Positions 1,824 through 43,901 of a DNA stretch of 44,417 bases are shown here, one piece after another. The stretch lies in the sequence record NC_073076.1; one strand, given 5' to 3'. Positions within the stretch are counted from its first letter, which is position 1; each line of letters begins with the position of its first letter. The DNA is from Escherichia phage jat. Below the pieces are notes generated by a model. The model did not search any database. It saw only the letters and a list, made by a program, of their open reading frames with translations, and had not been told where the DNA came from. The translations under genes and the position numbers were made by a program.

Positions 1824-3327
1824 TGTCCGCTACCTTGTCCGGGTCTTCTTCGGTAGATTCTACCGCATCAGGGGACATTTGAGGCAATGGATTCTGATTT
1901 CGCAATTCGTCTTCCACCTGCTCGACGGTTTGCGAGTCGTCGATGACACCCTGCGCCATCATCCACTTGATGAAGTCAGCCAGGCGGACCGTACCCGTCT
2001 GCACACCCGACATCATCGCGGTCATAAGCTGCGCATCAACCGTGATTTCGGTGTAGAACTTATTCAGCGTCACACGCTGGTCGGCGGTGTCGCCCGTGAA
2101 TAGCTGGACGATTTGCAGCGCACGGTTGAAAGCCTTCTCGACGTTACCGGCGATCAGTGACAGGATACTGTTATCAGTCTGCGCATCGTAGGCCGCTTCC
2201 GTTGCCGTCTTAGGTGCGGTCCCCTTCTCGACCAGGGCCGCGCCAAGTTTAGCCATTTGCAATTCGCGACGCTCACACAGTGCAACAGACAAGTTGCGCT
2301 CCTCCGCCTGGATCAGTTTAGCGTCCATGTTCTGGCCCAGGATAACGCCCTTAGTCGCACCGAGGGCAATGCCGCCCTTCAGGTTTTTGTCCGCCCATGA
2401 TTGAGTCAAGCCAGTTGCCACCAGAGTAGGCTGACCCACGATGTGCGCAATCTCGGCGACATCCGCTTCGGCGTTGTAGTGCTTAATGTTGATGGATGCG
2501 ATATCCGCCAGCGGAGCGGCGTCAGGCGTTGCGTTGTTGTCCACCGCACCACACCAGCAAAACGGAAGTTGTGTAAGCGCATTACCGGAGGCATCCACCA
2601 GCGGCACCAGGTCGGTGCGGGTGAATCCACGCGGCAAATCCATTTGCACCTCGGACGTGTCCGCGTTGTAGTACCAGCGGCGGGCGTGTGCCGCACCGTT
2701 AATCATGCGAAGCTCGGTCCAGATTGTTACTTCGTGGTTTGCGAAGTCGTCCGGGTCTTCGGTGCTGATTTCGTCCGTTTCCTTCAGCACAATTAGCGTA
2801 TCGACGCCGTGGGTCTGCCGCCAGTTGATGATCTGTTCTGCCGTGTACAGGCGGATAAGCGGGCGGTGTGACGCCATCTCGGCGGCTGTCTGCGGAACTA
2901 CGTTACCCAGTTCATCAAAATGCGCCTGGCGATCGTAGTCCACCATAAAGCCCGCACGGCCTGATTGCAGCACTTCCGACATAGCACCGCGCAGTAGTTG
3001 CGGCAGAGGCATACCGCTGCCGTCTACGTCGTCAATCAGGTCAGCCATCGCCCCGGAAAGGTCCAGACTTACCGGTTTAGCAAAGGCAACGCCTAACAGC
3101 GCGTTAAGTGTGCGGGCGGTGGCGTTCAGGAATACAGCGCGTTGCTTGTACGCCTTATACCGCGCCCGTGCTTTCGGGTCCGTATTGTCGCCACTGGCGG
3201 GATGAGGCAAGTACAAGGGGCCGCACGCCTTCACGGCGCGCTCCCCTGCCACACAATCGCGGATCATTTTCCACTCTGGCGCGATGCGCGCATAGAGCGG
3301 GTGCTGGTTGTCAACGTTAACGGTCAT
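1807..3327 (-). CDS. portal protein
   Basis: 506 aa ORF directly downstream of terminase large subunit; AAGGA SD before ATG at 3327; assignment by synteny and size. Confidence 0.65.
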   Translation of the reverse strand: MTVNVDNQHPLYARIAPEWKMIRDCVAGERAVKACGPLYLPHPASGDNTDPKARARYKAYKQRAVFLNATARTLNALLGVAFAKPVSLDLSGAMADLIDDVDGSGMPLPQLLRGAMSEVLQSGRAGFMVDYDRQAHFDELGNVVPQTAAEMASHRPLIRLYTAEQIINWRQTHGVDTLIVLKETDEISTEDPDDFANHEVTIWTELRMINGAAHARRWYYNADTSEVQMDLPRGFTRTDLVPLVDASGNALTQLPFCWCGAVDNNATPDAAPLADIASINIKHYNAEADVAEIAHIVGQPTLVATGLTQSWADKNLKGGIALGATKGVILGQNMDAKLIQAEERNLSVALCERRELQMAKLGAALVEKGTAPKTATEAAYDAQTDNSILSLIAGNVEKAFNRALQIVQLFTGDTADQRVTLNKFYTEITVDAQLMTAMMSGVQTGTVRLADFIKWMMAQGVIDDSQTVEQVEDELRNQNPLPQMSPDAVESTEEDPDKVADNGEDN

Positions 3328-3337
3328 GGTCGTTTCC

Positions 3338-4723
3338 TTAGTAGAAGTCTACAGTTGGAACAACGGCGATCGGACGAATCACTGGGAACAGGTGCGCAAT
3401 TGGGTATCCCGCGGCATCGTTCATGTGGTCCACACCGGCGGTCTTATCCGGCTCGCCTTTCTTCAGGTCGTAAACCTGCTGTTCCAGACATTTCGCTAGT
3501 GTAGGGCATTTATCCAGGTTGACAAAATACTGGCGCACGCCCTTCGAGTTGCACATCATCGTATTCATCGCGATCAATCGGTCTTTCACAGGCGGGTTAA
3601 CGCTGTCATACTCCACCTCGAAGCCCGCGTCTTCCAGTTGCGCGATATCTGACGACGATGCGTTGACAGTCTTGCGAGACTTGCCGCTGCTATCCGGGTA
3701 AACGACGACCCGACCGGCGGCACAATGATCGGGGTAGCGCTCCTCGATCGCCTCAATCATAGCCGGGGTATCAAACAGGTCTACGAATTCATCCACTGCG
3801 TGAATCTCGTCGCGGAACTCCTTGTTTTCGGTGATGCGCTGCCGTCTGACGTACACGACCGCCGCCATCTTCGTGACGTTAAAGTCCATACCGATAATCA
3901 GCGTGTCGTCCGGTTGCACTTCTTCGGTGCTGGCGTTCTCCTCGCGGTTGAACATCTTGTACACCGCGCCCGACGTAAGGTTGACAAACAGGCCGTTCAG
4001 GTACGCATCTATCAGGTTAGCCGGGTACTGACTGCGCAGCGTGTCGATAAAGTCTGCCGGTAAATGGTGGTTGTCCGTGGTCTTCGCCCGGATCAAGCGT
4101 TTCTGGTTGTCTTTCTCCACCTCGAAAATTTGGTACATCGCCCGGTAGCCTTCAGGCGTTGACACGATGACGAACTGGCGGACGAAGCCAGCACGCAGAC
4201 GACCGAGCAATTTGTGATATGCCGCCAGCGCGACGTCTTGCTTCGTGGTATCGAACTCGTCGGCAACAATCCACGCGGCATTAACCCCGATCAGGCGGGT
4301 ATAGTTCTCCATTGACTCACAGATAACGCGGGTCCATTTGCCTTTCACAAGCACGTTATAGATCTTGTCCTGCTTATTGAACTTCCACCGGAAGCCCGCC
4401 TCGTCGAATGCCTTTTCCAATTCCGGATACATGATTTTAACCAGGAGGGGAATCGTCGGTTCTGTTACGATGCCATCATGACCGGGGTTTAGTGTTAAAA
4501 GCTGGATGACCTTTCTCGCCGCGACCCATGACTTACCGCCGCCGAAGCCGGAACACAGGCCGAGGATTTTAGTCTTCGTGTCACGCAGTAGTTCAACCTG
4601 GTGCGGCAAGCAATCAGGCTGGTAAAGGCGGACGGCCTGCGCAACGCGTGTCGGGCGCGGCGGTCGGTTTCGCTTTGCGATCGCTCGTTCAAGGGCACGA
4701 TGTTCTGCCGCATAGTTACGCAT
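3338..4723 (-). CDS. terminase large subunit
   Basis: 461 aa; Walker A-like GFGGGKS near N-terminus, acidic nuclease-like C-terminal half; start overlaps TerS stop (TTAATG). Confidence 0.8.
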   Translation of the reverse strand: MRNYAAEHRALERAIAKRNRPPRPTRVAQAVRLYQPDCLPHQVELLRDTKTKILGLCSGFGGGKSWVAARKVIQLLTLNPGHDGIVTEPTIPLLVKIMYPELEKAFDEAGFRWKFNKQDKIYNVLVKGKWTRVICESMENYTRLIGVNAAWIVADEFDTTKQDVALAAYHKLLGRLRAGFVRQFVIVSTPEGYRAMYQIFEVEKDNQKRLIRAKTTDNHHLPADFIDTLRSQYPANLIDAYLNGLFVNLTSGAVYKMFNREENASTEEVQPDDTLIIGMDFNVTKMAAVVYVRRQRITENKEFRDEIHAVDEFVDLFDTPAMIEAIEERYPDHCAAGRVVVYPDSSGKSRKTVNASSSDIAQLEDAGFEVEYDSVNPPVKDRLIAMNTMMCNSKGVRQYFVNLDKCPTLAKCLEQQVYDLKKGEPDKTAGVDHMNDAAGYPIAHLFPVIRPIAVVPTVDFY

Positions 4724-5274
4724 TAATCACCCTGGCCTTTGCCGGTAGGTTCCACAACGACGTCGCCGTTATCATCTTCGTCGTCATCCAGCGGTACATC
4801 GTCCCTGACGCCGTGGTTAGCTTTAAGCAGGAAGGTAGCGAAGCCCGCCGCGATGGTCACGCCGCCAGCTTCCATCAGGAAGGTTTTTTGTAACTCCATT
4901 GCGTCCGCCATCGCCTCAGCGAACTCCTCATGCGCACGCGCCCAGCGATACAGGCAAGCTACGCCCACGCCGATTTCCGCGGCAAATCGACCGAAGGTTG
5001 GCATTTTGTTGCGGGGGATTACTTGCGCAGCGCCTTTATCAGAGTAGTTTACCTGCCAGGCGTCGGCGTCGGCAAAATAGCGGCGAAGCTGGTCGCAGTA
5101 AACGGATCGGTAGTCAGTAGGGCGTCCACATTTGCCGCCTTTACGGCGCTTTCCGTACTCGATTTCAGGTCCGAGATTGGTATGTTCTGTTTGCTCGCCT
5201 GGTTTACGGCGCGGGGTAACTGCTACTCGTCCGTCCAGTTTGGCGCGTCGGCCCTTTACTTTAATTTCTGCCAT
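4723..5274 (-). CDS. terminase small subunit (putative)
   Basis: 183 aa from ATG at 5274 (track ORF extends to 5373 but that would cover an upstream terminator hairpin); HTH-like segment TFGRFAAEIGVGVACLYRWARAHEEF; acidic C-terminus; immediately upstream of TerL. Confidence 0.5.
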   Translation of the reverse strand: MAEIKVKGRRAKLDGRVAVTPRRKPGEQTEHTNLGPEIEYGKRRKGGKCGRPTDYRSVYCDQLRRYFADADAWQVNYSDKGAAQVIPRNKMPTFGRFAAEIGVGVACLYRWARAHEEFAEAMADAMELQKTFLMEAGGVTIAAGFATFLLKANHGVRDDVPLDDDEDDNGDVVVEPTGKGQGD

Positions 5275-5356
5275 GATATAAGCCCTTTTGTGCATATGCG
5301 CCGACCATCGGCAACATAGGAGACGGCCCTGCCATCTAAGGTGGATTATAACAGGC

Positions 5357-5392
5357 ACAAAAAAGCCCACCAAATCGGCAGGCTGGGTGGCT
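5357..5392 (-). terminator. rho-independent terminator (minus strand)
   Basis: gcccacc / gggtggc imperfect stem (5365-5391), followed on minus strand by U6 (plus-strand A-run 5359-5364); just downstream of stop of 5405-6547 gene. Confidence 0.45.
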
Positions 5393-9991: not shown

Positions 9992-10206
9992 TTTGTTTGG
10001 TCCTCTCGTTGGTGTGCAACCAATCTAGCAGGGTGCCAGGCTGAATGCAACCAATATTAATCATGCGTATGAAAAAGTTGATCGCTATCTGCTGTGGCTG
10101 CAAACTGCATTTCCCGCCCGCCATTCTGCAACTCGCATTGGTTGCCTAGTTCACCGACGACCGCAATTTACATCATGTTGCCGTGTATTATGCAATCCCC
10201 GGATTT

Positions 10207-10372
10207 TATTCAGTCTCAGACGAGGGGGGCCATTGACCCCCGTCTAGTCTGAAAGACTGGGCTTTGTCCCGCTTGTCCCGCTCCTCTGGAAGCCGCGCCA
10301 TCCGGGGCGGGACGGGGGTGCTGTCCCGCTTTGTCCCGCCCCTTGTTTGTCCCGCTTTTTGTCCCGCTCAGT
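10207..10372. repeat. iteron element copy A: long imperfect hairpin plus six TGTCCCGC octamers
   Basis: Hairpin cagtctcagacgaggggggccattgacccccgtctagtctgaaagactg (10212-10259) followed by TGTCCCGC at 10265, 10274, 10323, 10334, 10349, 10361 and one inverted copy GCGGGAC at 10309; about 85 percent identical to 37643-37802. Confidence 0.65.
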
Positions 10373-10473
10373 TTATTCAGTTTTATTGCATAACTATTCA
10401 TTATACTCACACTACACGGCAACCAATACGACCAGATAAAAACACTCAAAATGGCAACCAATGCGCGCAAAAT

Positions 10474-12738
10474 TTAATCTTTTAAGTCGTCGTCGGTCGC
10501 CGAAAGCGTGATTGGTATGCTTGTTTTTATGACGATATTTGACGACCCATAGATGGCCCCGGTGTGCGGATCGGTATAAAAACCGAGTACGCCGCGCTCG
10601 ACCATATCGTCGATTGCCTTCGTCGACGTGCCACCTTTCGCCAGTCCAGCCTGGCGGACAATTGCCGATTTGCTGAATCCGGTATGGTCCGGGTTATCTT
10701 CCATCAGTTTTTCCAGTGCTGCATAAAGCACTTTCTCTTTTTCGTTGCGCGGCCCTGCGGCGTTCTCTTCCTTAACTGCTGCTTTGCCCGCGGCCTTCGC
10801 CTGTTCAATAGCGAACGGTGCCAGGGCAACCGGTACGAGGTAGAGAGTCTCGTCGCGTGGCGTGGAGGCAATCGGCTTGACGTCCCATCCGGCAACCACG
10901 TCGCCGAAGTCTGGCCCGGTGCTGGTGGACTGGTGCACCTCGAACGCTTCTGACTTGCGGAGATCCACCTTCACCTTGCACTTGAGCAGGACGAAGCCGC
11001 GCGGCGCTTGCTTGATGCCGTTACGTGACTTTTCGTGATACAGGTTCAATTGTCCGGGCTGGTTGTCGTCCGGCTGTTCCAGGAAGAACGCAGAATCGAC
11101 AGCACCATGCAGCGCGCCGGATCCGCGTGGGGTTCTGCTGCCGTTGGCACCCTTCGCCGGGTGGTGGATGACGCCCGCACTGCCACCTGTATTTTCCGCA
11201 ATGGCTTTCAGCGCTTTGACCACTTCACCCATATCGCTGGCGTTGTTCTCGTCGAACGGTTTGGCATCGGCGGACCGCAGCGCAACCGTCTGGTTGAGTG
11301 AGTCGAACGCCACCAGGCCAACCGGTTCGCCGTTAGCGGTGCGGTTGATGAAGCTGATAACTTCACGCAAGCCGGATTTGCTGGTGATATCCCAGCCGCG
11401 TGATTGCAGATCGATAATGTGCAGCTTGTCGAGGTCGTGCTCGTATTTGATCTGCAATGCTTCCTTACGCTGGTTGGAGGCTTCGCCACCTTCCGCGTCG
11501 AAATAGAAGCAATGGGACTGGACGACCTTCGCACCGCCGAACGGAATCCCCGCGGCAACCGCACCCATTTGCCCCAGCACGTAGAAAGACTTACCGATAT
11601 TCGACTCACCCGCCATGTACCAGGTCGATTTAAAGTTGACCAGGCCTTCTATGATCGGGTCGTGCTTACTGAACAGCGCAACCGGCTCGTTGTCCAGGTC
11701 AGCGTCGGTACATACGCCGTACTCGTCGCCGTCTCCGACCGCATCAACGATATGTTCATAGCACGATTCCACTTCCTCGTCGTCCAGCCCCGGAAGGATG
11801 GCGGCGATTTGCTTACGTGACATGTTGTGTGGCTCGACGTTCAGGTGGTCCGGGATCCCGATAAGACGTAGCGCCAGGTGCTGGTGTCTGTTCAGTTCCG
11901 AGCAACACTCGTTGCCGGTGTGCATACACTTGAAACGGATCTCGCCATCCTTAACCATGATAGCGGTGGACCCTTCGCCGCTGTGCAGGTGTTCGTTCGG
12001 GCATGGCACTTCATAACCACGACCAGACGACAGCGGTTCGAATCCCGCCTGGAAGCACCAATCCAGAATACCGTCCGCCACACCATCATCGCCCTGGGTC
12101 AGTTCGCGGCGTACTTCCTCTTTCTCGACTCCCAGCTTGTCCGCCAGGCGGAGCAGACGACGGACGCGGGCGCGCTTGCCGTAGTGGCACTTAACGACAG
12201 ACTGCTGATGTGGCAGGTACATAAGGCGGTTTGTGTCTTTTGTACAGTCGTCGAAGTCCACATCTGACAGACCCAGTTGGTGTAATAGTGCATACTGGAC
12301 GCGGCCCAGGTCTTCAGCCGGTACAGGCTTGTCCGTGAGCACCAGGAAACGGGCGCAACGCGTGCCCCCTTTCAGCGGGTGGCGGTCGCCGGTGGTGGTG
12401 TGAAATACGTGTTCCAGACCCGCGTCGATGAACGCCTTACGGCAGCGGCGAAGGGTGCGGGTGTCGGTGCGGTCAATATCGAAGAACAGGATCGAGCGGT
12501 CCACGGCACTGGTCTTGCGGCGCAGCCCATCACTGGTATAAGCCACAATGCCATCAGCCTTACGCTTACGGCGGGCGTACTCGGCTTTATCTTCCGTCTT
12601 GTTGATATGCACCGAGGAGATTTCTTTCGCATCATTGATAAATTCGAAAAACTCTTCGGTAGTCATCTGGAAGTTTTCCGCCCTGGCTTTTTCGCCTTTT
12701 TTAGCGGGTCGTGTTACTGCGAATTTAATTAAGCTCAT
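10474..12738 (-). CDS. primase-helicase (prim-pol-like N-terminus, Zn-ribbon, RecA-like ATPase)
   Basis: 754 aa; DIDRTD acidic motif in N-terminal domain, Cys/His cluster CPNEHLH...CMHTGNEC, Walker A GESNIGKS and Walker B-like LVAFDSL. Confidence 0.7.
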   Translation of the reverse strand: MSLIKFAVTRPAKKGEKARAENFQMTTEEFFEFINDAKEISSVHINKTEDKAEYARRKRKADGIVAYTSDGLRRKTSAVDRSILFFDIDRTDTRTLRRCRKAFIDAGLEHVFHTTTGDRHPLKGGTRCARFLVLTDKPVPAEDLGRVQYALLHQLGLSDVDFDDCTKDTNRLMYLPHQQSVVKCHYGKRARVRRLLRLADKLGVEKEEVRRELTQGDDGVADGILDWCFQAGFEPLSSGRGYEVPCPNEHLHSGEGSTAIMVKDGEIRFKCMHTGNECCSELNRHQHLALRLIGIPDHLNVEPHNMSRKQIAAILPGLDDEEVESCYEHIVDAVGDGDEYGVCTDADLDNEPVALFSKHDPIIEGLVNFKSTWYMAGESNIGKSFYVLGQMGAVAAGIPFGGAKVVQSHCFYFDAEGGEASNQRKEALQIKYEHDLDKLHIIDLQSRGWDITSKSGLREVISFINRTANGEPVGLVAFDSLNQTVALRSADAKPFDENNASDMGEVVKALKAIAENTGGSAGVIHHPAKGANGSRTPRGSGALHGAVDSAFFLEQPDDNQPGQLNLYHEKSRNGIKQAPRGFVLLKCKVKVDLRKSEAFEVHQSTSTGPDFGDVVAGWDVKPIASTPRDETLYLVPVALAPFAIEQAKAAGKAAVKEENAAGPRNEKEKVLYAALEKLMEDNPDHTGFSKSAIVRQAGLAKGGTSTKAIDDMVERGVLGFYTDPHTGAIYGSSNIVIKTSIPITLSATDDDLKD

Positions 12739-12748
12739 TGCCGTTGCC

Positions 12749-13078
12749 TTACTTAGACGTTTTATTATTGCGTACCCATGAGCGCACGGTGCTCTGATTA
12801 ATTCCGGTTAACTCGGCGATCATTGCCCATGACTTTCCCTCATTGCGCAAACGGATAACCTGCTTTTTGTATTCTTCCATTTCTTCATTGTGTTTTTGCA
12901 GCTTGCTTGCTGCCGTGCCGTTGAGCAATTCCAGCTTCGCGGTAAGCTCCTTCTCAGCACGCGATAATCTGGACACTTCAAATAACAGAGTATCCACCGC
13001 ATTTGTGTAATACCAGGATTTACCCGCTTCGCCGCGGATTGCATTAGATAACACTTCAATTGCTTCTTTGATATTCAT
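12749..13078 (-). CDS. HTH DNA-binding protein, putative transcriptional regulator
   Basis: 109 aa; C-terminal HTH GKSWAMIAELTGINQSTVRSWVRN; AGGAGA SD; sits at a divergent regulatory region. Confidence 0.5.
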   Translation of the reverse strand: MNIKEAIEVLSNAIRGEAGKSWYYTNAVDTLLFEVSRLSRAEKELTAKLELLNGTAASKLQKHNEEMEEYKKQVIRLRNEGKSWAMIAELTGINQSTVRSWVRNNKTSK

Positions 13079-21780: not shown

Positions 21781-22472
21781 TAATCTGGTCATTGTTTGAC
21801 GGCAGCGGCTTGATGATTGAGCGTGCTGCCGAGATGGGGCATAAGTGTTATTGCTTCAACTATTCCGAAGCCGATCACGGGTCTTACCTTGACTACCGGA
21901 TTTATGGTCGCGGAATCCGATATCGCAATGAGTTTATAGATATGGACTTTGTGGACCGCGCGATGAATGGCGATTTCGGTACGCCGGATATCATCTATGC
22001 ATTCCCTCCGTGTACGGATCTGGCAGTGAGCGGCGCGCCAGCTTTCCCGCGCAAGCGTGCGAAAGACCCAGCCTTTCAGCTTAAGGCGGTGCGCACCGCG
22101 AAGATCGCCGCTTACCTGGGTGACTTCTTCGAAGTGCCATATATGATTGAGAATCCGCGCAGTGTGCTCTCCACCCAGTGGCGCAAGCCAGACCACTCGT
22201 TTGATCCGTGGGAGTATGGGGGCTATCTGCCGGAGGATGACGTACACCCGCTCTTCCCGGAATACATCAACGCCCGCGATTCATATCCGAAGCGGACCTG
22301 CTTATGGACCGGCAACGGCTTTCGTATGCCAGAGAAAAAGCCTGTATTCGTTGAAAAAGGGTACTCGAAGCAGTATAGTCGCCTCGGAGGCAAATCAGCC
22401 CGCACCAAATTAATCCGGTCGCTCACCCCGCGCGGCTTCGCGATAGCGGTCAATGAGGAAAATTTAAAATGA
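21777..22472 (+). CDS. C5-cytosine methyltransferase-like protein (compact)
   Basis: 231 aa; motif I-like LFDGSG, motif IV-like FPPCTDLAVSGA (Pro-Cys), motif VI-like ENP; ATGA overlap with helicase stop. Confidence 0.45.
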   Translation: MIIWSLFDGSGLMIERAAEMGHKCYCFNYSEADHGSYLDYRIYGRGIRYRNEFIDMDFVDRAMNGDFGTPDIIYAFPPCTDLAVSGAPAFPRKRAKDPAFQLKAVRTAKIAAYLGDFFEVPYMIENPRSVLSTQWRKPDHSFDPWEYGGYLPEDDVHPLFPEYINARDSYPKRTCLWTGNGFRMPEKKPVFVEKGYSKQYSRLGGKSARTKLIRSLTPRGFAIAVNEENLK

Positions 22473-22792
22473 ATACTACATTCGAAGCCATTGATTTTTC
22501 GGTTGCAATGACTAACCAGTTATTCTCCTACGACAGCAAAACCGGCGTCATTCGTCTGAAGTCCACCGGCTGCAAAATTGGCAACCTTAACACTGCCGAT
22601 GGCGGCACGCGCATCGAATGCAACGGCAAAACTCTATCGGGCGCACGCGTGGCGTGGATTATCGCGACCGGCAATACAATTCCTCCAGGCTACGCCGTTG
22701 TGTGCCGCCAGCGAACACCAGGCCACTACGGCAACCGAATCAGCAATCTGTATCTGGTAGACGTTGCACGCGACCCAAATTTTTATTCGTAA
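22469..22792 (+). CDS. hypothetical protein, possibly degenerate HNH-like endonuclease
   Basis: 107 aa; weak resemblance to HNH_3-type homing endonuclease core (ARVAWIIATGNTIPPGYAVV...HYGNRISNL); ATGA overlap with methyltransferase-like gene. Confidence 0.25.
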   Translation: MNTTFEAIDFSVAMTNQLFSYDSKTGVIRLKSTGCKIGNLNTADGGTRIECNGKTLSGARVAWIIATGNTIPPGYAVVCRQRTPGHYGNRISNLYLVDVARDPNFYS

Positions 22793-22827
22793 ATTGGTTG
22801 CATAATTAGATTGGTTGCATTATCTTA

Positions 22828-22858
22828 AGGGTGTCCGGTTGGACGCCTTTTTTTTTTA
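22828..22858 (+). terminator. rho-independent terminator
   Basis: ggtgtcc/ggacgcc stem (one G-U) with ggtt loop followed by T10. Confidence 0.55.
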
Positions 22859-34304: not shown

Positions 34305-34939
34305 CTTACGAATCCAATAGCAGTCTTAAGGGTGGCGGATACCGTTGCCGTGTAGTGCCCGTTGTCAGTGTACGACAAGCTCGAACGCTCGACCACGAAT
34401 AAACCTGTTTCGCCATCCGGCGCGGTGACGACAAACGGTTTGACGAAGTGCCCGCGAAGGAAGTTGTAAACCAGTTTAGGGTTGCACCACTTGTCAGTAG
34501 TCAGTCCGATGAATTGCACGGGGAACTGTTTCGTTTCGGCGTTCGGGCCGTCCGCGATGTTCTGACCGTAACCGTTACCAAACTGCAATTCCTCGGACCG
34601 GAAAGCCAACTGCACGTCTCCGCCGCCTTGCAATTGCATGTGCCAGTAATAGGGCCATTCGTTTGATCGCGGGTCGTGCGCTTCGATTAGCTCATAAGCT
34701 GCACCGGCTTTTGTCGGTCCGGCCCAGTTATCCGCCAGGGTGATGACGGTGTTAGAGTTGAATGCCGCAATTTTTCCGGTGTAGTCGTTGCCGTCGATGC
34801 GGGTAAATACGCTGACCTTCCCGATCTCGCTCAGGAACGCGGTTCCCACGCCTGTGATGGTCTTACTTCCCTTAGTTAGTGTGATTGTACCTTGCGCCAT
34901 AAAAAAGCCCCCACGTTGTAGTGAGGGCCATTTTATCAT
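34301..34939 (-). CDS. minor tail protein (lambda M-like C-terminal domain with N-terminal extension)
   Basis: 212 aa; C-terminal block FGNGYGQ...FIGLT resembles gpM; ATGA overlap with tape-measure stop; alternative ATG at 34900 preceded by a hairpin. Confidence 0.65.
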   Translation of the reverse strand: MIKWPSLQRGGFFMAQGTITLTKGSKTITGVGTAFLSEIGKVSVFTRIDGNDYTGKIAAFNSNTVITLADNWAGPTKAGAAYELIEAHDPRSNEWPYYWHMQLQGGGDVQLAFRSEELQFGNGYGQNIADGPNAETKQFPVQFIGLTTDKWCNPKLVYNFLRGHFVKPFVVTAPDGETGLFVVERSSLSYTDNGHYTATVSATLKTAIGFVR

Positions 34940-37578
34940 CGTTTGTAAAGTACACCACCCGGTTTCGTCGCCTTCACGATCTCGGCCTTGACCGACTCGG
35001 TGATTTGCTTTCCGAACGCCTGCGCGGTGCGCAGGTCTGGACCGCTAACACTGGTATCCGTCTTACCGGTCCCCATGTTAACGTTGGTCGTTACAATCAT
35101 CCCTCCGCCTACACCGGCAGCGACAACGCCCAGTTTGCCGTCCGGGCCGCGCTTCAGTGGCATGATGGCCTCGGGTCCGGCCTCCCCCATCAATCCCGCG
35201 CCCTTTGCGAACGCCTGGACGCCGTAACTGAAAAAGGTGGGCTGGCTTACCACTTGCCCCGAATAGGCCGCGAGATTGCCCCCTGCGTACGCTCCTCCGT
35301 CCGCATTCTTAGTTAGGCCAGAGAAGATAGCGCCGAACAATCCGTTTTTGCCGCCGTCGCCACCGAAAGCGCTAACGATGGACTTGAATGCCTGCGAGGT
35401 AGCCAGCTTGATTAATTCGCTCAGGATGGACTTAACCATATCCTTTGCGTTCAGCTTGCCAGTCTCGAAAAACTCGTTCATCGTGTCCTGCATAGCGCCG
35501 AACGTGAATTTTGTGAGTGACGTCATCTGCGTGTAGCCGTTACCCATTTCATCCACGCTATCCTTAAGCCCGCGGCTGAAGCCATCCCATAGCGAGGCGT
35601 TAGCACCGGTCTGTGCTTCCTGCACTTCGCGCAGCTTAGACACCGCCAGGTCAATATCGGTATCGTTAGCACCAACGCGCTTAAGGCGGTCAATCAGCTG
35701 TAATTCTTCGCGCAGGTTAGCCGCTTCGCGAGTGGAAAGCGCATAGCCCGCCGCGGTGGCTTTTAGCTCGGCGTTCTGGTTCTTAACGAAGGCGTCGATC
35801 TGCGCGTGCGCCTTGACCTGCTTCTCTTTCGCGTCCAGCAATTTGGCTTCTTCGACGATCTGCTCGCGTACTTCCTTCACGCGTCCGAATTCGACCATCT
35901 GCTGCTTTTCTGCTGCCGTTAGTGCTCTTTCTTTGCTTGCTGCGATTAACTGCTCATTATCCGCGATCAGCTTGTTTAGGGCCGCCTGCGCGCGTTGCGT
36001 GCGGGTCTGCGTCGATGCGTTGGCTTCGATCTGCTTGCCGGATTCTCGAAGCTGGGCCAGTTCGCTCCGTGCTACTTCCAGCATTTTCAGCCCGGCATCG
36101 ACTCGAACAGCGGCGGCCTTCTTCGGGGCGGGGTCTTTGTACCGCTCGTTGACCTGCTTCACCGCCTCGGCAAGCTCTTTCTCGTCAATCACGCCACGCT
36201 TATTAAGCAAATTGAGGCGGGCGATCTCGTCGGCGCGCCTCTTCGCGTTGGTTGCGTACTCCTTCTCAAACGCGGCGCGGTCGCGGGCGGTGCGGTTTGC
36301 CTCTTCGTTCGCCTTTGCTGCTTCGTCAGCGGCACTTGCGTTGTCTCGCTCTGCACGGTTGCGCAGGGTGAGCGACGCCACTACTTTTTCCTGGGCTACC
36401 AGTTCGCTGTAAAGCATGTTAATACGCGCTTTCTGCGCTTCGGGCATCACCCCACCGGCAGCGTTTACCGCTTTCATCTCGGCATAGTAAGCCGTGGTCA
36501 GTCGCTGCAATGATTCACGCGCTTTCATCTCTGACTCATTCGAGGACTGCGCGCGCCCGACATCCAGGATGGCATCCCACATAGATTTAGCTGCCGATGT
36601 AACGACGTTCATCGACCGCTCAAGCGTACCCATGTTGGACTTGATCTCATTGGTCATAGTGGTAAACGACGCTGCGGCTGTTTTGTTAGCCAGCGCCACC
36701 GCTTCGGTTTCGCGACCAGCCGTCACTAGTGACTGCACCTGCTGGATCTGCGCTTCGTTTACGACGTGATACTTATCCGCCAGCGCACGCAGTCCGCCAA
36801 CGGGGTCGGTTGACAGCTTCGCCACCGCCGCTACCACATCCTCGATCGGCTGGCTGGACGCCTTCGCAAAGTCATTAGCTACCTTAGCCAATGCGCCGAA
36901 GTCACCACCCGCTTTCACACCCGCCGCCGCCAGCGCCTGGATTGTGTCACGCGTCTTGCGGAATGATCCGCCCATGCGCTCGGCGTTCTCGGATAACACC
37001 AGGATCTGGTTTGCAGTGAGGCCGGAAATGTTACCTGACAGCGCCAGCGTCTTGTTAAGCGCGGCGACCTGGTTCTCTGCGCGGGACGTAATTGCCACGC
37101 CCACGCCTAACGTTGCCGTTACGGCGGCGAGGCCGATCCCTACTGGGCCGAGGAAGCCCGCAACATAACGCAGCGTGTTACCCAGTCCACCGAACGCCCC
37201 AGTTAGCTGCGGTAACTGCTGAAGCATGACGCGGTGAACCGGCATCCCCATCTCAAGCGTTACCGCAATATCCTGTAGCTGGAATGCGGCGTTACGCGAG
37301 GCAAAGCCCAGGTTTTTAGTCGACATCCCTAACCTGTTGGCGAGTCGCTCCTGTTTCGTCATGCCATCGGCGGCGCGCTGCGATTCGTTTGCCAGCTTTT
37401 CCATTCCGCCCGCGGCGTCACTCGTCACCTTTTTGGATTTGCCGAGGGTGTCGTTTAATTTCTTAACCTTGTTTTCTGTGTTCTCGGATTTCTGTGCGAA
37501 GGAGTCCAGCACAGTATTTGCCGTTCTGATTTGTGCAACATCAGCCTTTAGCGTGATGCCTGCTGCCTGATCTGCCAT
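34936..37578 (-). CDS. tail tape measure protein
   Basis: 880 aa, Ala/Lys/Glu-rich coiled coil with Gly-rich C-terminal region; longest gene after J. Confidence 0.8.
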   Translation of the reverse strand: MADQAAGITLKADVAQIRTANTVLDSFAQKSENTENKVKKLNDTLGKSKKVTSDAAGGMEKLANESQRAADGMTKQERLANRLGMSTKNLGFASRNAAFQLQDIAVTLEMGMPVHRVMLQQLPQLTGAFGGLGNTLRYVAGFLGPVGIGLAAVTATLGVGVAITSRAENQVAALNKTLALSGNISGLTANQILVLSENAERMGGSFRKTRDTIQALAAAGVKAGGDFGALAKVANDFAKASSQPIEDVVAAVAKLSTDPVGGLRALADKYHVVNEAQIQQVQSLVTAGRETEAVALANKTAAASFTTMTNEIKSNMGTLERSMNVVTSAAKSMWDAILDVGRAQSSNESEMKARESLQRLTTAYYAEMKAVNAAGGVMPEAQKARINMLYSELVAQEKVVASLTLRNRAERDNASAADEAAKANEEANRTARDRAAFEKEYATNAKRRADEIARLNLLNKRGVIDEKELAEAVKQVNERYKDPAPKKAAAVRVDAGLKMLEVARSELAQLRESGKQIEANASTQTRTQRAQAALNKLIADNEQLIAASKERALTAAEKQQMVEFGRVKEVREQIVEEAKLLDAKEKQVKAHAQIDAFVKNQNAELKATAAGYALSTREAANLREELQLIDRLKRVGANDTDIDLAVSKLREVQEAQTGANASLWDGFSRGLKDSVDEMGNGYTQMTSLTKFTFGAMQDTMNEFFETGKLNAKDMVKSILSELIKLATSQAFKSIVSAFGGDGGKNGLFGAIFSGLTKNADGGAYAGGNLAAYSGQVVSQPTFFSYGVQAFAKGAGLMGEAGPEAIMPLKRGPDGKLGVVAAGVGGGMIVTTNVNMGTGKTDTSVSGPDLRTAQAFGKQITESVKAEIVKATKPGGVLYKR

Positions 37579-37642
37579 TATGCAGTCCCCTTTTTTATGC
37601 AGTTGCCGATGGATATTGTATCAGCGATTTCAAAACAAACCT

Positions 37643-37960
37643 TATTCAGTCTCAGACGAGGGGGCCATTGACCCCCGTCTAGTCTGAAAGACTGGGGTGC
37701 TGTCCCGCTGTCCCGATCGGCTGAAAACCGCGGCAGCACTGGCTGGGACGGGGTGCTGTCCCGCTTTGTCCCGCCTAGTGTTTGTCCCGCTTTTTGTCCC
37801 GTTTGTTTTATGCACGAAAACCGAATACGTATGCACTTTTGTGGGGTGGGACAAAACGGGACGTCCCGCTTGTCCCGCTTTTATATTATGCAATGGAAGT
37901 GAGTAGGTATGCAGTTTCACATGGGTGGGACAAAACGGGACGTCCCGTTTTGTCCCGCTT
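37643..37960. repeat. iteron element copy B plus two 45-bp direct repeats containing GGGACGTCCC
   Basis: Hairpin 37648-37694 and TGTCCCGC/TGTCCCGT octamers at 37701, 37709, 37757, 37767, 37783, 37795; direct repeats 37831-37880 and 37909-37960, each with palindrome GGGACGTCCC followed by TGTCCCGC. Confidence 0.65.
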
Positions 37961-37962
37961 CA

Positions 37963-38639
37963 TTATGCGGGGTTCTGCTGCGCCATCTCATCAAGCGCGA
38001 TTCGTTCCATTAGCTTGATATCTTTAAACGCGCGCTGCTCGTTTTCGATACCGTGCATCTTAAATAACCACTCCAGCACGCCGTAGTCGATGCCGTATGC
38101 GCCACCAAATCCGGTGCGCCATTGCGTGGCGCAATCTGTGAAGACTGCGACTACCTTCGCGTTGTCAGGCCACAGCGCAACAGGCGGACAAACATCTTCG
38201 GGGGTCGCACCCCATAAACTTGCGGCTAAATCTTCGGAGGGTGGCGGCGGGCCATAAAAGCGTCGCGCCGCCTCAATTAGTTTTTTTCACGCAATCCCAT
38301 CAGTTCGAGATAGTACGACGTGTGGAACACACCGAACGCGCGTGGATAGTTGACCACCAGGCGGCGGACGTTCTCCGCGTTAAATTCGTCCGGCAGATTC
38401 CAGCCTTCTGCGACGTGCATGATGGCCTCGACCATAACGTTAAAGCCGTCCGGGTCATTGTCGTCATATTCCGACAGCTTTCGTTCGGTGTCCTGCATGG
38501 TCTGCGAAAACTCGTCGATCGGGCGGTGGCGTACGGTAAACGTCATCTTGCCTGGTTCGCTCTCACCAGGGCGCGGGATCTCAATCGGCAGCTTAAATGT
38601 TGGCTTAGGGTCAAGTGTGAAGAGTGGTGCTTTAGCCAT
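37963..38639 (-). CDS. tail assembly chaperone frameshift product (lambda GT-like), programmed -1 frameshift
   Basis: Heptamer A_AAA_AAC (plus 38280-38286) immediately before the G stop; -1 frame stays open for about 104 codons to TAA at 37963-37965. Confidence 0.55.
38277..38639 (-). CDS. tail assembly chaperone (lambda G-like)
   Basis: 120 aa from ATG 38639 (GGAGA SD; track start 38654 is TTG inside a terminator A-run); ends REKN* within slippery sequence. Confidence 0.6.
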   Translation of the reverse strand: MAKAPLFTLDPKPTFKLPIEIPRPGESEPGKMTFTVRHRPIDEFSQTMQDTERKLSEYDDNDPDGFNVMVEAIMHVAEGWNLPDEFNAENVRRLVVNYPRAFGVFHTSYYLELMGLREKN

Positions 38640-38652
38640 TGTAGTATTCTCC

Positions 38653-38680
38653 AATAAAAAAGGGGCCGTGCCGGCCCCAT
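38653..38680 (-). terminator. rho-independent terminator (minus strand)
   Basis: ggggccg/cggcccc 7-bp stem with 3-nt loop; U7 on minus strand (plus A-run 38655-38661); downstream of major tail gene. Confidence 0.6.
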
Positions 38681-39917: not shown

Positions 39918-40510
39918 TATTTCACCTTCGAATTGATTTCTGCCGCTACGACGCGAACAATCCCCGCGGGCGCTTGTTTACTCCAGCCATACTCGAGTCG
40001 CTGCGCATACGGCACATTGTTAGTAAACCAGATAGACCCGTATTCACCGGAATCGTAATGCGCCAGCACTTCACGCCCTGCGGCTAATGTTGCCGTTCCT
40101 GCCTTGTCCACGCGGTCAATAGCGCCGACAGCCGGGCGGTCGAACGTAACCTGCCAGTTTCCCCGGAAGCGTCCGCCGGTGTAATTCTTCGCAGCCCAGC
40201 CACGCTGGCGGAACGTGACGTTGCCGTTTTTAGTTTTGAATGAGATGAGCACACTGGCGTGCTTCTTCTGCCCGCGCTTCAGTTTGCCGCCATTCTTGCG
40301 GCGCTGCGCGGCGTTCACCTTGTTCGCGTGTTCGCGTGCAAGCGCGTAGGCCTTGTTAATCTTCCACCGGCGTGGGTCGCCTACCGGGGAGATCTCGATC
40401 AGGCGTCCGAGTATTTGCATACCGTACGCCCGCACCGCCTTGTCGTTGTTCTCCTTCGTCTTATCCACCCACGTAGCAATAGTGGCGGCGAACGAGTAGA
40501 CTTCAGCCAC
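39917..40510 (-). CDS. head-tail joining / tail completion protein (putative)
   Basis: 197 aa; assignment by position only. Confidence 0.35.
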   Translation of the reverse strand: MAEVYSFAATIATWVDKTKENNDKAVRAYGMQILGRLIEISPVGDPRRWKINKAYALAREHANKVNAAQRRKNGGKLKRGQKKHASVLISFKTKNGNVTFRQRGWAAKNYTGGRFRGNWQVTFDRPAVGAIDRVDKAGTATLAAGREVLAHYDSGEYGSIWFTNNVPYAQRLEYGWSKQAPAGIVRVVAAEINSKVK

Positions 40511-40511
40511 G

Positions 40512-40871
40512 TTAGCCCCTTAGCTGTAGTTGAAACAGCATGGTCTGGCCCGCCGGTTGCAGGGGGTTGGGATTGATAACCCGGTAGTCTGTATTGTTCA
40601 GGCTAACCAAATCCCCGACCTTTACCTGCTTGACGGCCTGACACAAAAACTTCACATCACCGGCAACGATACGCGTCCCGTCGATCTCGCTCGGCTTGTA
40701 CTCCTCTCGAAGACCGATGACGTCGAACGACGTTGGCGGGATTATCACTTCGTCGCCGTCTACGCGGTCAACCGACCCCGGACGCGTCACCGTAGCCATC
40801 ATGCCGAACTTTTTAATCAGCGGATTGACTTTCCGCTTTAACCCCGCGTAATTAAAGCCCGCCATTATCAT
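40512..40871 (-). CDS. head-tail connector protein (putative)
   Basis: 119 aa; assignment by position only. Confidence 0.35.
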   Translation of the reverse strand: MIMAGFNYAGLKRKVNPLIKKFGMMATVTRPGSVDRVDGDEVIIPPTSFDVIGLREEYKPSEIDGTRIVAGDVKFLCQAVKQVKVGDLVSLNNTDYRVINPNPLQPAGQTMLFQLQLRG

Positions 40872-41528: not shown

Positions 41529-42629
41529 TTAAGACGCGGTAGTCTCAGTCAGCGTAACCAGTACGCCAGCCGTTTCCTTGATGTGGCGGGTAGGCGCTTC
41601 CTGTGCGGCCTGGGTCTTACGACGGCCTTTAGTATCGCCATCCCCCACAGCGCCAACATCCTGCACGGTTGCCGGTGCGTTGTCTACCTGGCCCTGGTCC
41701 AGTTCCCAGTTAGCGGAAGTGGTGATATCGTCCAGCTTGAACGAGCGCACACCTTCGATCGGGGTACGAGCGGACGCCTTCAGACGGTAGCCTTTAACGG
41801 CCACGTTGAAGTCGAACTCGCCCTGCCACCAGCGTTCGATGTTCTCGTTACCGCCTTTCTCCTGCGCCAGCATATCGAGGCCGTTGGTGGTAACTGCAAC
41901 CGCGCCAGGAACCAGACCCAGCATGTTACCAGCGCCCATAGCATCGGCAGCGGCATCGGAGATAATGAATCGACGGCCCAGGCCATCACCCATTACCTGG
42001 AGATCGCCAATTGCGAATACCTGTTCAGCGGAAGGGAGTGCCTGGTACGCAATGAAGTTTGCCCAGGTAACGCCGTCCATAAACCAGGACTTAATCAAAG
42101 ACGCCTGATCGCCGAACTTAGAAGCCGCCAGCGGGAAGTCTGCCAGGGTCGGGAAGGTACGACCGCTAACGCCGTCAACGCGCGCCGGTTGGGTGTATTT
42201 TGCATCTGCGTTGCTTTCGATCGCCGCTTTACTTGCGCCGATACCCGCTTTCAGGTAGTGCAGCATAATCGCTTGAGTAGCCTGCGCCGCAATCTCAGCC
42301 GCAACGCTGTTAACGTTGGTTTCGATTTTAGCCATCATGGCCTTCGTAATTGCTACCGGACCCACTTTTGCGGAAAGGTTAACCGAGTTGGTCAGCATAC
42401 GCGCCAGCACTTTCGCGGTTGCCGGAGTGCCGACAGGGGCGTAGGCGTTACGGTCGGTAACGAGGTTGGCGATCAAGCCTACGGACATTTTCTCAATAAC
42501 ATCCTTCAGCACTTCACCAGTACCGAGAACAACAGCGCCATTGGCGGCGGCGTTGAAAACGTTCAGGTTGTCGGGGATCATTTGCGTAACCGCGGTAACG
42601 AGTTTACGCTGGAACACTGTTAAAGACAT
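41529..42629 (-). CDS. major capsid protein (putative)
   Basis: 366 aa; follows scaffold-like gene and precedes a strong terminator. Confidence 0.65.
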   Translation of the reverse strand: MSLTVFQRKLVTAVTQMIPDNLNVFNAAANGAVVLGTGEVLKDVIEKMSVGLIANLVTDRNAYAPVGTPATAKVLARMLTNSVNLSAKVGPVAITKAMMAKIETNVNSVAAEIAAQATQAIMLHYLKAGIGASKAAIESNADAKYTQPARVDGVSGRTFPTLADFPLAASKFGDQASLIKSWFMDGVTWANFIAYQALPSAEQVFAIGDLQVMGDGLGRRFIISDAAADAMGAGNMLGLVPGAVAVTTNGLDMLAQEKGGNENIERWWQGEFDFNVAVKGYRLKASARTPIEGVRSFKLDDITTSANWELDQGQVDNAPATVQDVGAVGDGDTKGRRKTQAAQEAPTRHIKETAGVLVTLTETTAS

Positions 42630-42726
42630 ATCGAAATCCTTTGAGTTGTGAGCATTCGCCCAGTGACGTTAATGTTACCTTAGATTTACGCGCTCGCAAA
42701 ATTGCCCGCTTTCGCGGGCAATCTGC

Positions 42727-43520: not shown

Positions 43521-43560
43521 CTTGCATTGCGTATGTTGGTTGCATTATATTGGTTGCACA
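43521..43560 (+). promoter_or_regulatory. putative promoter region with two TTGGTTGCA motifs
   Basis: TTGCAT (43522-43527), about 18-bp spacer, TATATT; motif copies at 43535-43544 and 43549-43558; directly upstream of plus-strand gene 43587. Confidence 0.35.
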
Positions 43561-43586
43561 CCAACAGAGATATGAAGGAAAACAAA

Positions 43587-43901
43587 ATGACTAACATGAC
43601 CGTAGCAACTCCAGTAGACGCCGCAATGGCCCGTTTCAATAAAGCTACCGTAGCGAATACCTTTACCTTTCACGCAATGCGTAACGCGGAAGCGCTGAAT
43701 CTGTGCCAGAGCATGAATGCTTCCGAAGCGGCAAAAGCGGCGATCAACTCCGCAACATTCGATAATCCGGCTTGCGGCCTGGTTCCGGCATCTTTCATAA
43801 ACGCCCTGGTCGAAGCCTTTAACGATTTCATGTGCGTCGATGCCGTTGAAGCTGTATGTGCCCGCTTAACTTCCACCGGTGGCAACATCAAATTCAACTA
43901 A
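43587..43901 (+). CDS. hypothetical protein
   Basis: 104 aa from ATG 43587 (GAAGGA SD); track ORF begins at 43527. Confidence 0.45.
   Translation: MTNMTVATPVDAAMARFNKATVANTFTFHAMRNAEALNLCQSMNASEAAKAAINSATFDNPACGLVPASFINALVEAFNDFMCVDAVEAVCARLTSTGGNIKFN

Follow-up and report, generated by a model that had tools for sequence, protein, structure and literature searches.

We analysed the complete, circularly permuted 44,417-bp genome of Escherichia phage jat (NC_073076.1; the window), a member of Dhillonvirus, the genus of HK578/SO-1-like E. coli siphophages. We studied a 384-bp non-coding gap (region A), which lies in the tail operon between the tail chaperone gene GT and the tape-measure protein gene. 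We propose, at a probability of about 0.45, that region A carries one copy of a cis-acting, replication-origin-type assembly module and that a second non-coding gap (region B), which starts at the stop codon of the helicase-primase gene, carries the other. The module is composed of GTCCCG(C/T) cores in direct and inverted orientation, a conserved bulged hairpin and A+T-rich spacers bearing TATGCA motifs. An origin-type site is favoured because one copy is located directly after the helicase-primase gene, flanked by a segment of 78% A+T, and because the protein encoded there carries a predicted winged helix. Judged from its sequence, region A is best filed as a putative member of the iteron/hairpin class of origins.

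We infer that initiation at such a module would proceed in three steps. First, a phage DNA-binding protein would coat the octamer arrays; the likeliest binder is the C-terminal winged helix of the primase-helicase, and the alternative is a small helix-turn-helix (HTH) protein encoded just upstream. Then the hexameric RepA-like helicase would be loaded at the adjoining A+T-rich DNA, and the hairpin, once extruded, would offer the primase domain a structure-specific signal for entry or priming. In this scheme the primary origin would be region B, and region A, within the tail operon, would be a second origin or a cis-acting partner, as SPP1 oriR is to oriL and P4 crr to ori.

Region A is a non-coding gap built of repeats

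The initial annotation had described this stretch as non-coding, and its boundaries proved exact. The -1 frame of G runs to the stop codon at 37963, so the gap comprises precisely positions 37579-37962 and borders the tape-measure start, and no reading frame is open across it. The longest open reading frame (ORF) inside, with 92 codons on the minus strand (37642-37920), consists of repeat units and is disrupted by 1- to 11-bp indels among relatives. GenBank annotation of the region varies, with assorted small 'hypothetical proteins' in some records and none in others. It was also correctly seen that the usual abutment of GT and the tape-measure gene is broken here; in the Guernseyvirinae phage Tsm2 these two genes abut, with no gap at that junction.

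The short-repeat array and the hairpin that had been predicted are both present. In the window we counted 16 copies of the octamer TGTCCCGY where 3.5 are expected; none of 100 shuffles reached this number, and all copies are on the plus strand. Seven of them fall in region A and six at 10265-10367 in region B, that is, 13 of the 16 in the two loci, and both regions thus hold at least three short-repeat copies beyond chance. Of the 60 GTCCC/GGGAC pentamers in the window, region A holds 16 and the second locus 7. Six octamers form the array as described, one of them being TGTCCCGA, but their spacing of 8, 48, 10, 16 and 12 bp is not the uniform 9-12 bp reported before. When the hairpin was folded as DNA, its free energy was -12.5 to -13.2 kcal/mol, with a z score of -2.8 to -3.4.

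Next to the array are two repeats which had been described as about 45 bp long, each carrying a palindrome. The repeats are real, but what is duplicated in tandem is longer, about 79 bp (37802-37880 and 37880-37960), and includes them. In each unit we found one GGGACGTCCC-centred palindrome and one TGCATA-N15-TGCATA pair (2 pairs found, 0.01 expected). The palindrome of the second unit is a perfect 30-mer (-16.6 kcal/mol, z -6.6) made of four cores, two per orientation, 10 bp apart inside each arm. Altogether region A carries six TATGCA motifs.

The module is repeated after the helicase-primase gene

The similarity to a locus near 10.2 kb that had been suggested was borne out by pairwise alignment: 37642-37814 matches 10206-10379 over 173 bp with 86% identity (E 8e-50). 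There is no third copy elsewhere in the genome, and a search of plasmids with the module gave no match. The two modules share one orientation relative to transcription, both inside one long minus-strand transcription unit, and region B is located exactly at the early-to-late gene boundary. On the helicase side of the region B octamers, a 40-mer of 78% A+T abuts the array; it is a candidate unwinding element and includes a block, AATAGTTATGCAA, present also in a Salmonella Jersey-like phage.

Two further observations concern region B. It is flanked by inverted repeats of 13-16 nt. Moreover, a block (G)AATAGTTATGCA at 10385-10400, just upstream of the first iteron in the sense direction, is common to Dhillonvirus region B, to region A of a metagenomic lineage described below (~2655-2670) and to vB_SenTO17 (~12925-12940), and the iterons of these differ. 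Several GCGGGAC cores are preceded by TGCATAA and an A-rich run.

Both loci are conserved in Dhillonvirus

Both loci were kept in every Dhillonvirus examined. An 801-bp stretch that we tested is 99.1% identical to phage Oekolampad (Bas18) and was found in 157 phage records. The initial annotation had called the stretch an insert, a label that does not hold. A gap is present, with the same architecture, in all 157 database relatives matched, and a gap occurs also in a metagenomic lineage whose helicase-primase is 68% identical (the 68% lineage) and in the genus Eiauvirus. Region A is an old, maintained feature and not a recent insert.

The element has been known since Sodalis phage SO-1 (NC_013600/GQ502199), as an annotation only; our literature search found no published analysis of or experiment on regions A and B. 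The SO-1 record already annotates both loci as repeat_region, with 'region A' at 11214-11597 (384 bp; its neighbours are the tape-measure gene and gp16, the T part of GT) and 'region B' at 40178-40657, after the helicase-primase gene. Its text speaks of 'direct, inverted and palindromic repeat sequences' and of the mutual similarity of the two regions, which are the same element as here. The record of phage 'rolling' likewise carries a repeat_region feature at this locus.

We then aligned both loci of eight genomes that had been retrieved via their flanking genes; region A of one of them, Kente, is cut by a deletion at the record end. The architecture is the same at both loci, with the GTCCCG cores, the hairpin stem and the TATGCA motifs fixed while the spacers drift. 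In alignments of 16 and 19 distinct copies, 71-74% of core positions were invariant, compared with 35-52% for the remainder. The larger sets (IMG/VR) were collected with a 22-nt search pattern that includes part of the hairpin right arm and is invariant there by construction; the same 22 nt are invariant also in the genomes retrieved via flanking genes, except Kente, where the deletion removes them. Among about 30 distinct copies of the hairpin the stem never varies and the loop takes at least 10 forms, and the hairpin flanks are invariant in sequence, beyond mere pairing.

Several records depart from this pattern. In region B of UDS3lw (PQ658967) the hairpin and octamers are duplicated in tandem, and this record ends within the region; in TH11 (MT446389, an unverified record) region A is duplicated together with part of the GT gene. 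Three further records start or end within region A, and some genomes have identical hairpin loops at both loci. The repeats disturb assemblies.

Repeats at these loci in related lineages

Both loci of the 68% lineage have retained the GCGGGAC cores, the GGGACGTCCC palindrome and the hairpin. The lowest base pair of the stem differs in region A of this lineage, where both sides have changed, from A-T to G-C (AGACG..CGTCT to GGACGG..CCGTCC). This compensatory change is a single event; we read it directly from the sequences, because C runs of unequal length displace the right arm by a column in the hairpin alignment.

Both gaps are present in Edwardsiella phage eiAU (genus Eiauvirus), the one before the tape-measure gene measuring 1116 bp and the one after the helicase-primase gene 897 bp. 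Common to them is a 50-bp block (AAATCGCCCCG..GCCCGCCCC..GGGGCA) with a different, G+C-rich repeat, (A)TCGCCCCG, and 6 of the 18 CGCCCCG copies of eiAU lie inside the two gaps. Just before its tape-measure gene eiAU carries the same bulged hairpin core, GACGGGGG..CCCC(T)CGTC, with the bulged T retained. Guernseyvirinae/Jersey-like phages have other repeats after the helicase-primase gene, TTCCGCACA in Tsm2 and GGGGGAGA in SenTO17. The order of a small HTH gene, the helicase-primase gene and a repeat region was found in all lineages examined. By comparison of these sequences, the locus after the helicase-primase gene is ancestral to the whole group, and the tail-operon copy is common to Dhillonvirus and Eiauvirus. 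The repeat is the same at both loci of one genome and different between genera, which fits one co-evolving, trans-acting, sequence-specific binder.

An antisense ORF lies in the gap before the tape-measure gene in eiAU (P858_54, 42365-42718, 118 aa) and in the 68% lineage (2865-3245, 126 aa), and the window has none in that gap. Motifs of a second kind, TTGGTTGC, occur in the same gap of eiAU and of the 68% lineage and may form a promoter for this ORF.

The helicase-primase and the small HTH protein as candidate binders

The 754-aa protein encoded beside region B is named replicative helicase-primase in PHROGs. Across 42 homologues, D87xD89 and H120 are invariant within an N-terminal domain that is modelled with confidence, and a Cys/His cluster (246-285) and a Walker A motif are present; the helicase core is of the AAA_25/RepA type. 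The invariant residues C246, H252, C271, H273, C279 and H285 sit between the primase-like domain and the helicase and probably form a zinc-binding module. The C-terminal 75 residues are predicted to fold as a winged helix (pLDDT 80-92), whose best matches are MarR, IclR, ArsR, histone H1 and Rio2 (probability up to 0.99, E 0.03-0.3).

Searches of Pfam with the N-terminal, middle and C-terminal pieces gave no matches even at E 10, and the first 350 and last 115 residues fall outside any Pfam family; the assignment as primase-type therefore rests on the PHROG names and the invariant DxD/H motifs. Sequence and profile searches of the PDB returned only a weak RepA match and a spurious BurrH match, and P4 alpha was absent from the results.

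The small HTH protein, which has similarity to sigma-70 region 4, is the first gene product of the helicase-primase operon. Covariation was tried as a way of assigning the octamer binder and failed: the 68% lineage keeps the same octamer, and covariation cannot assign the binder because the small HTH of Dhillonvirus is not orthologous to that of Eiauvirus or Guernseyvirinae. The mutations by which HK578 evades the OLD defence fall in this helicase-primase and in the promoter of its operon, and their authors read them as replication-initiation mutations (bioRxiv 10.64898/2026.07.10.737580), which links these genes to replication initiation.

Comparison with known origins

An organisation like the present one is that of P4, whose ori and crr, in work attributed to Ziegelin and Lanka in 1995, are said to be two separate cis loci with the same octamer repeat in direct and inverted orientation. 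Two cis loci sharing one octamer repeat are likewise found here. The P4 alpha protein combines a primase, a hexameric helicase and a C-terminal winged helix that binds the origin repeats in one polypeptide (PMC2777425, PMC4234260). However, alpha has a Toprim primase and a superfamily 3 (SF3) helicase, whereas the phage jat protein has a RecA/RepA-type core and a primase domain with DxD/H motifs. The P4 repeat is TGTTCACC, P4 lacks a conserved bulged hairpin, and there is no sequence homology; the helicase-primase is not a homologue of alpha, and the likeness is one of organisation only.

The oriV of RSF1010 (IncQ) unites iterons, the RepA helicase and ssi hairpins that are recognised by its primase (PMC4234260, PMC2777425). 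A RepA-family helicase is shared with the system described here. In RSF1010, however, three separate proteins (RepC, RepA and RepB') act on 20-bp iterons, and ssiA and ssiB are on opposite strands of one origin, whereas each locus here has one hairpin and both are on the same strand; moreover, the module has no DNA similarity to any plasmid. In pRN1 a small DNA-binding gene (orf56) and the primase-helicase-winged-helix gene orf904 are followed, just downstream, by an essential stem-loop that is the proposed origin, and a pRN1-like arrangement has been noted in some phages (PMC4234260). The gene order is the same as here, but pRN1 is an archaeal plasmid with an SF3 helicase and a single locus, and its stem-loop of about 100 nt has no iterons. 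The virulent Bacillus siphophage SPP1 has two similar regions bound by its origin protein, oriL and oriR, one in the replication cluster and the other among distant late genes. It differs in having a separate origin-binding protein (G38P), a loader and a DnaB-type helicase, in its unrelated repeats and in the position of oriL inside gene 38.

A bolder version of the proposal, which we hold to be rather improbable, is that the tail-operon copy is an obligatory cis partner of the helicase-primase copy, giving a virulent siphophage a bipartite origin like P4 ori/crr. One protein with primase, helicase and winged helix would then link two iteron arrays that are separated by 17 kb, and would start priming at the bulged hairpin. 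If so, self-contained initiation in the manner of IncQ and P4, so far known from plasmids and satellites, would operate in a common group of lytic coliphages, among them HK578 and several BASEL phages, and replication initiation would be physically tied to the late operon.

Points that weigh against an origin-type site

Several results count against reading region A as an origin. Region B lies beside a replication gene in all lineages, whereas region A lies in the tail operon, a long way from any replication gene, and its A+T content peaks at only 65-70% (genome value 45.5%). The literature searched holds no mapped replication origin for any Dhillonvirus, and GC skew tracks only the direction of transcription and is uninformative on an origin. 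The same orientation of both modules relative to transcription is also expected of an element acting on transcription or at the RNA level. The winged-helix matches are weak in E-value, and sequence-specific DNA binding by this domain is putative; the small HTH of eiAU and Guernseyvirinae is an unrelated, Cro-like HTH and not an orthologue of the Dhillonvirus protein. Furthermore, the motif TTGGTTGC populates region B and both eiAU gaps, indicating that the gaps are composite regulatory regions and not pure origins. A DnaA box was considered and rejected, as TTATGCACG agrees at 8 of 9 positions and about 0.3 such matches are expected per 384 bp, which is within chance.

Alternative functions

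The initial annotation had left the choice among an origin, a terminase site and an operator array open. Our evidence favours an origin-type site and disfavours a terminase site; an operator or promoter array is possible.

Transcription control is the strongest of the alternatives, although we consider it unlikely. A phage regulator such as the 109-aa HTH protein would bind the octamers as operators or activator sites and would time or attenuate the late genes after region B and the tape-measure and distal tail genes after region A by activation, roadblock or insulation. Both modules lie within one long minus-strand unit in the same orientation, region B is at the early-to-late boundary, the nearby HTH protein resembles sigma-70 region 4, and the TGCATA-N15-TGCATA pairs of region A exceed expectation, all of which agree with such a role. 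In lambda-like tail operons, reduced expression after the major tail and chaperone genes also makes biological sense. However, scans for sigma-70 promoters gave 1 and 0 sites at the two loci against 0.7 and 1.1 expected, the -10-like bases beside TGCATAA vary among relatives, and Guernseyvirinae run the same tail operon with no gap at this junction. The conserved hairpin is not an intrinsic terminator because neither strand has a U or T run; no intrinsic terminator above chance was found on the sense strand, and the terminator-like matches in the gap are all antisense (plus strand), at the palindromes. Region A also lacks the motif of the known promoters of this phage, which is a different one, TTGGTTGCA. 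Reading by eye, we found a sigma-70-like promoter (TTGCAT-17-TAGATT) with TTGGTTGCA motifs about 170 bp downstream of the region B hairpin, which the promoter scan did not report; if it is real, the module itself need not be the late promoter. A sigma-54 reading of TTGGTTGCA was rejected, as the spacing does not fit.

A cis-acting RNA is very unlikely in our estimate. In that case the module would work within the minus-strand mRNA, with the hairpin and palindromes acting on RNA polymerase or on processing, like the antitermination elements putL/putR of HK022 or an RNase III site, at the start of the late operon and before the tape-measure gene. In its favour, two similar loci lie in a fixed orientation to transcription, and the folds are stable. 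The hairpin would also suit such a role, since its stem is conserved while the loop varies freely, one pair has changed in a compensatory way and the bulge is kept; yet its flanks are invariant in sequence and not merely in pairing, and the compensatory event is a single one. The short cores in both orientations and the 10-bp phasing are typical of sites for proteins that bind double-stranded DNA, and a scan of the whole window with Rfam 15 gave no match at gathering score.

Even more improbable is a packaging signal, in which the arrays would be TerS recognition (pac) sites that start a headful series. Repeated short motifs are typical of TerS sites. However, the pac sites of P22-, Sf6- and SPP1-type phages are in or beside terS, whereas the two loci here lie 4.6 kb upstream and about 12 kb downstream of it, and two pac sites would be unusual. 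The GenBank record of UDS3lw begins and ends inside region B, at about window position 10093, and several other records break inside region A, but breaks at repeats are what an assembler produces, and record starts are unreliable as physical ends because that of BF9 falls within a tail gene. Accounts of packaging in the genus disagree, giving either cos or headful. According to the authors of UDS3lw, packaging is headful 'with a preferred pac site' (PMC13348001), plain headful packaging was described in other Dhillonvirus analyses (PMC9022532, PMC10059673), and for Dhillonvirus EE09 PhageTerm predicted a 10-nt 5' cohesive end, ATCTTAAGGG (PMC10673088). The latter maps to window 22822-22831, so that the published termini are headful or a cos outside both regions. 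ATCTTAAGGG is single in the window and lies just after an HNH endonuclease gene (22469-22792), beside a pair of TTGGTTGCA motifs.

Least credible of all is a selfish or decaying repeat without phage function, spread in the manner of a miniature inverted-repeat transposable element (MITE) or by gene conversion, for although the module occurs twice, identical hairpin loops at both loci in some genomes suggest gene conversion between them, UDS3lw and TH11 have tandem duplications and inverted 13-16-nt repeats flank region B, position and architecture are kept across genera in compact lytic genomes of 43-46 kb, the cores are far better conserved than the spacers, and neither further genomic copies nor a plasmid match was found.

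Relevance for Dhillonvirus biology

Dhillonviruses include model and therapy-candidate coliphages such as HK578, SO-1 and several phages of the BASEL collection. The present analysis supplies two precise candidate loci and a candidate binding domain, so that the origin of Dhillonvirus, as yet unmapped, can be put to a direct test. Confirmation of the sites would define the minimal replicon of this phage group, explain why defence-escape mutants fall in the helicase-primase operon and provide a second bacterial virus with an origin split between replication and late genes. In practical terms, the repeats break short-read assemblies and yield spurious small ORFs and record ends in many GenBank entries.

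Feature coordinates and other observations

The features of both regions and of their gene context are collected in Table 1. The genes surrounding region A are all on the minus strand.

Table 1. Coordinates in the window of the repeat elements, neighbouring genes and second motif
Feature	Position	Strand	Details
Region A	37579-37962		384 bp; entire non-coding gap from GT stop to tape-measure start
Module common to regions A and B	37642-37814		hairpin and octamer array; 86% identity to 10206-10379
Bulged hairpin	37647-37694		stem AGACG(A)GGGG / CCCCCGTCT at 37654-37680
Hairpin flanks	37647-37652; 37681-37693		CAGTCT; AGTCT-GAA-AGACT
Octamer array, region A	37701-37802	+	TGTCCCGC at 37701, 37757, 37767, 37783; TGTCCCGA at 37709; TGTCCCGT at 37795
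Inverted core GGGAC in octamer array	37745		within the 48-bp interval
Tandem unit 1	37802-37880		TATGCAC-N15-TATGCAC, then GGGACAAAACGGGACGTCCCGCTTGTCCCGC; near-palindrome at 37848-37876
Tandem unit 2	37880-37960		TATGCAA-N15-TATGCAG, then perfect 30-bp palindrome GGGACAAAACGGGAC|GTCCCGTTTTGTCCC at 37927-37956
Two more TATGCAG motifs	37579, 37596 (span 37579-37601)	+	beside tape-measure start and Shine-Dalgarno; invariant across relatives
Region B	9992-10473		non-coding gap starting at helicase-primase stop codon; carries paralogous module
Region B module	10206-10379		hairpin ~10213-10255; octamers at 10265, 10274, 10322, 10332, 10348, 10360; inverted core at 10309
A+T-rich segment	10372-10411		78% A+T; helicase side of region B octamers; candidate unwinding element
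Helicase-primase	10474-12738	-	754 aa
Small HTH protein	12749-13078	-	109 aa; first gene of helicase-primase operon; alternative octamer-binding candidate
Tape-measure protein gene	34936-37578	-	Pfam TMP_2 (E 2e-43) and lambda C-terminal domain
T extension of G (-1 frame)	down to stop at 37963	-	GT span 37963-38654
Tail chaperone G	38654-38277	-	Phage_TAC_4
Slippery run GAAAAAAAC	38280-38288		G/GT programmed -1 frameshift site, directly before G stop codon
Major tail protein	39434-38709	-	
terS	4723-5373		
TTGGTTGC 8-mers	6711, 6734, 9307, 10016, 10047, 10138, 10419, 10454, 13268, 16218, 16234, 19852, 22794, 22811, 24718, 24730, 27435, 43536, 43550		

The second motif, TTGGTTGC, occurs 21 times in the window against 2.0 expected, mostly as pairs between genes and at promoter-like sites. 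The region B module has five copies on its flanks, region A has none, and one form of the motif, TTGGTTGCACACCAA, is a dyad. The same motif (GCAACCAA) was found 23 times in eiAU against 1.8 expected, mostly inside the two gaps, and its probable role is that of an operator, bound by a regulator that is conserved between the genera.

In many GenBank records the T part of GT is entered as a separate small ORF or as DUF1799. The head module, otherwise on the minus strand, contains one plus-strand gene (43530-43901, ATG at ~43587), which is labelled RusA-like ('possible moron') in SO-1. This gene is preceded by two TTGGTTGCA motifs and the leader CACCAACAGAG, and an identical leader is found on the first gene after region B.

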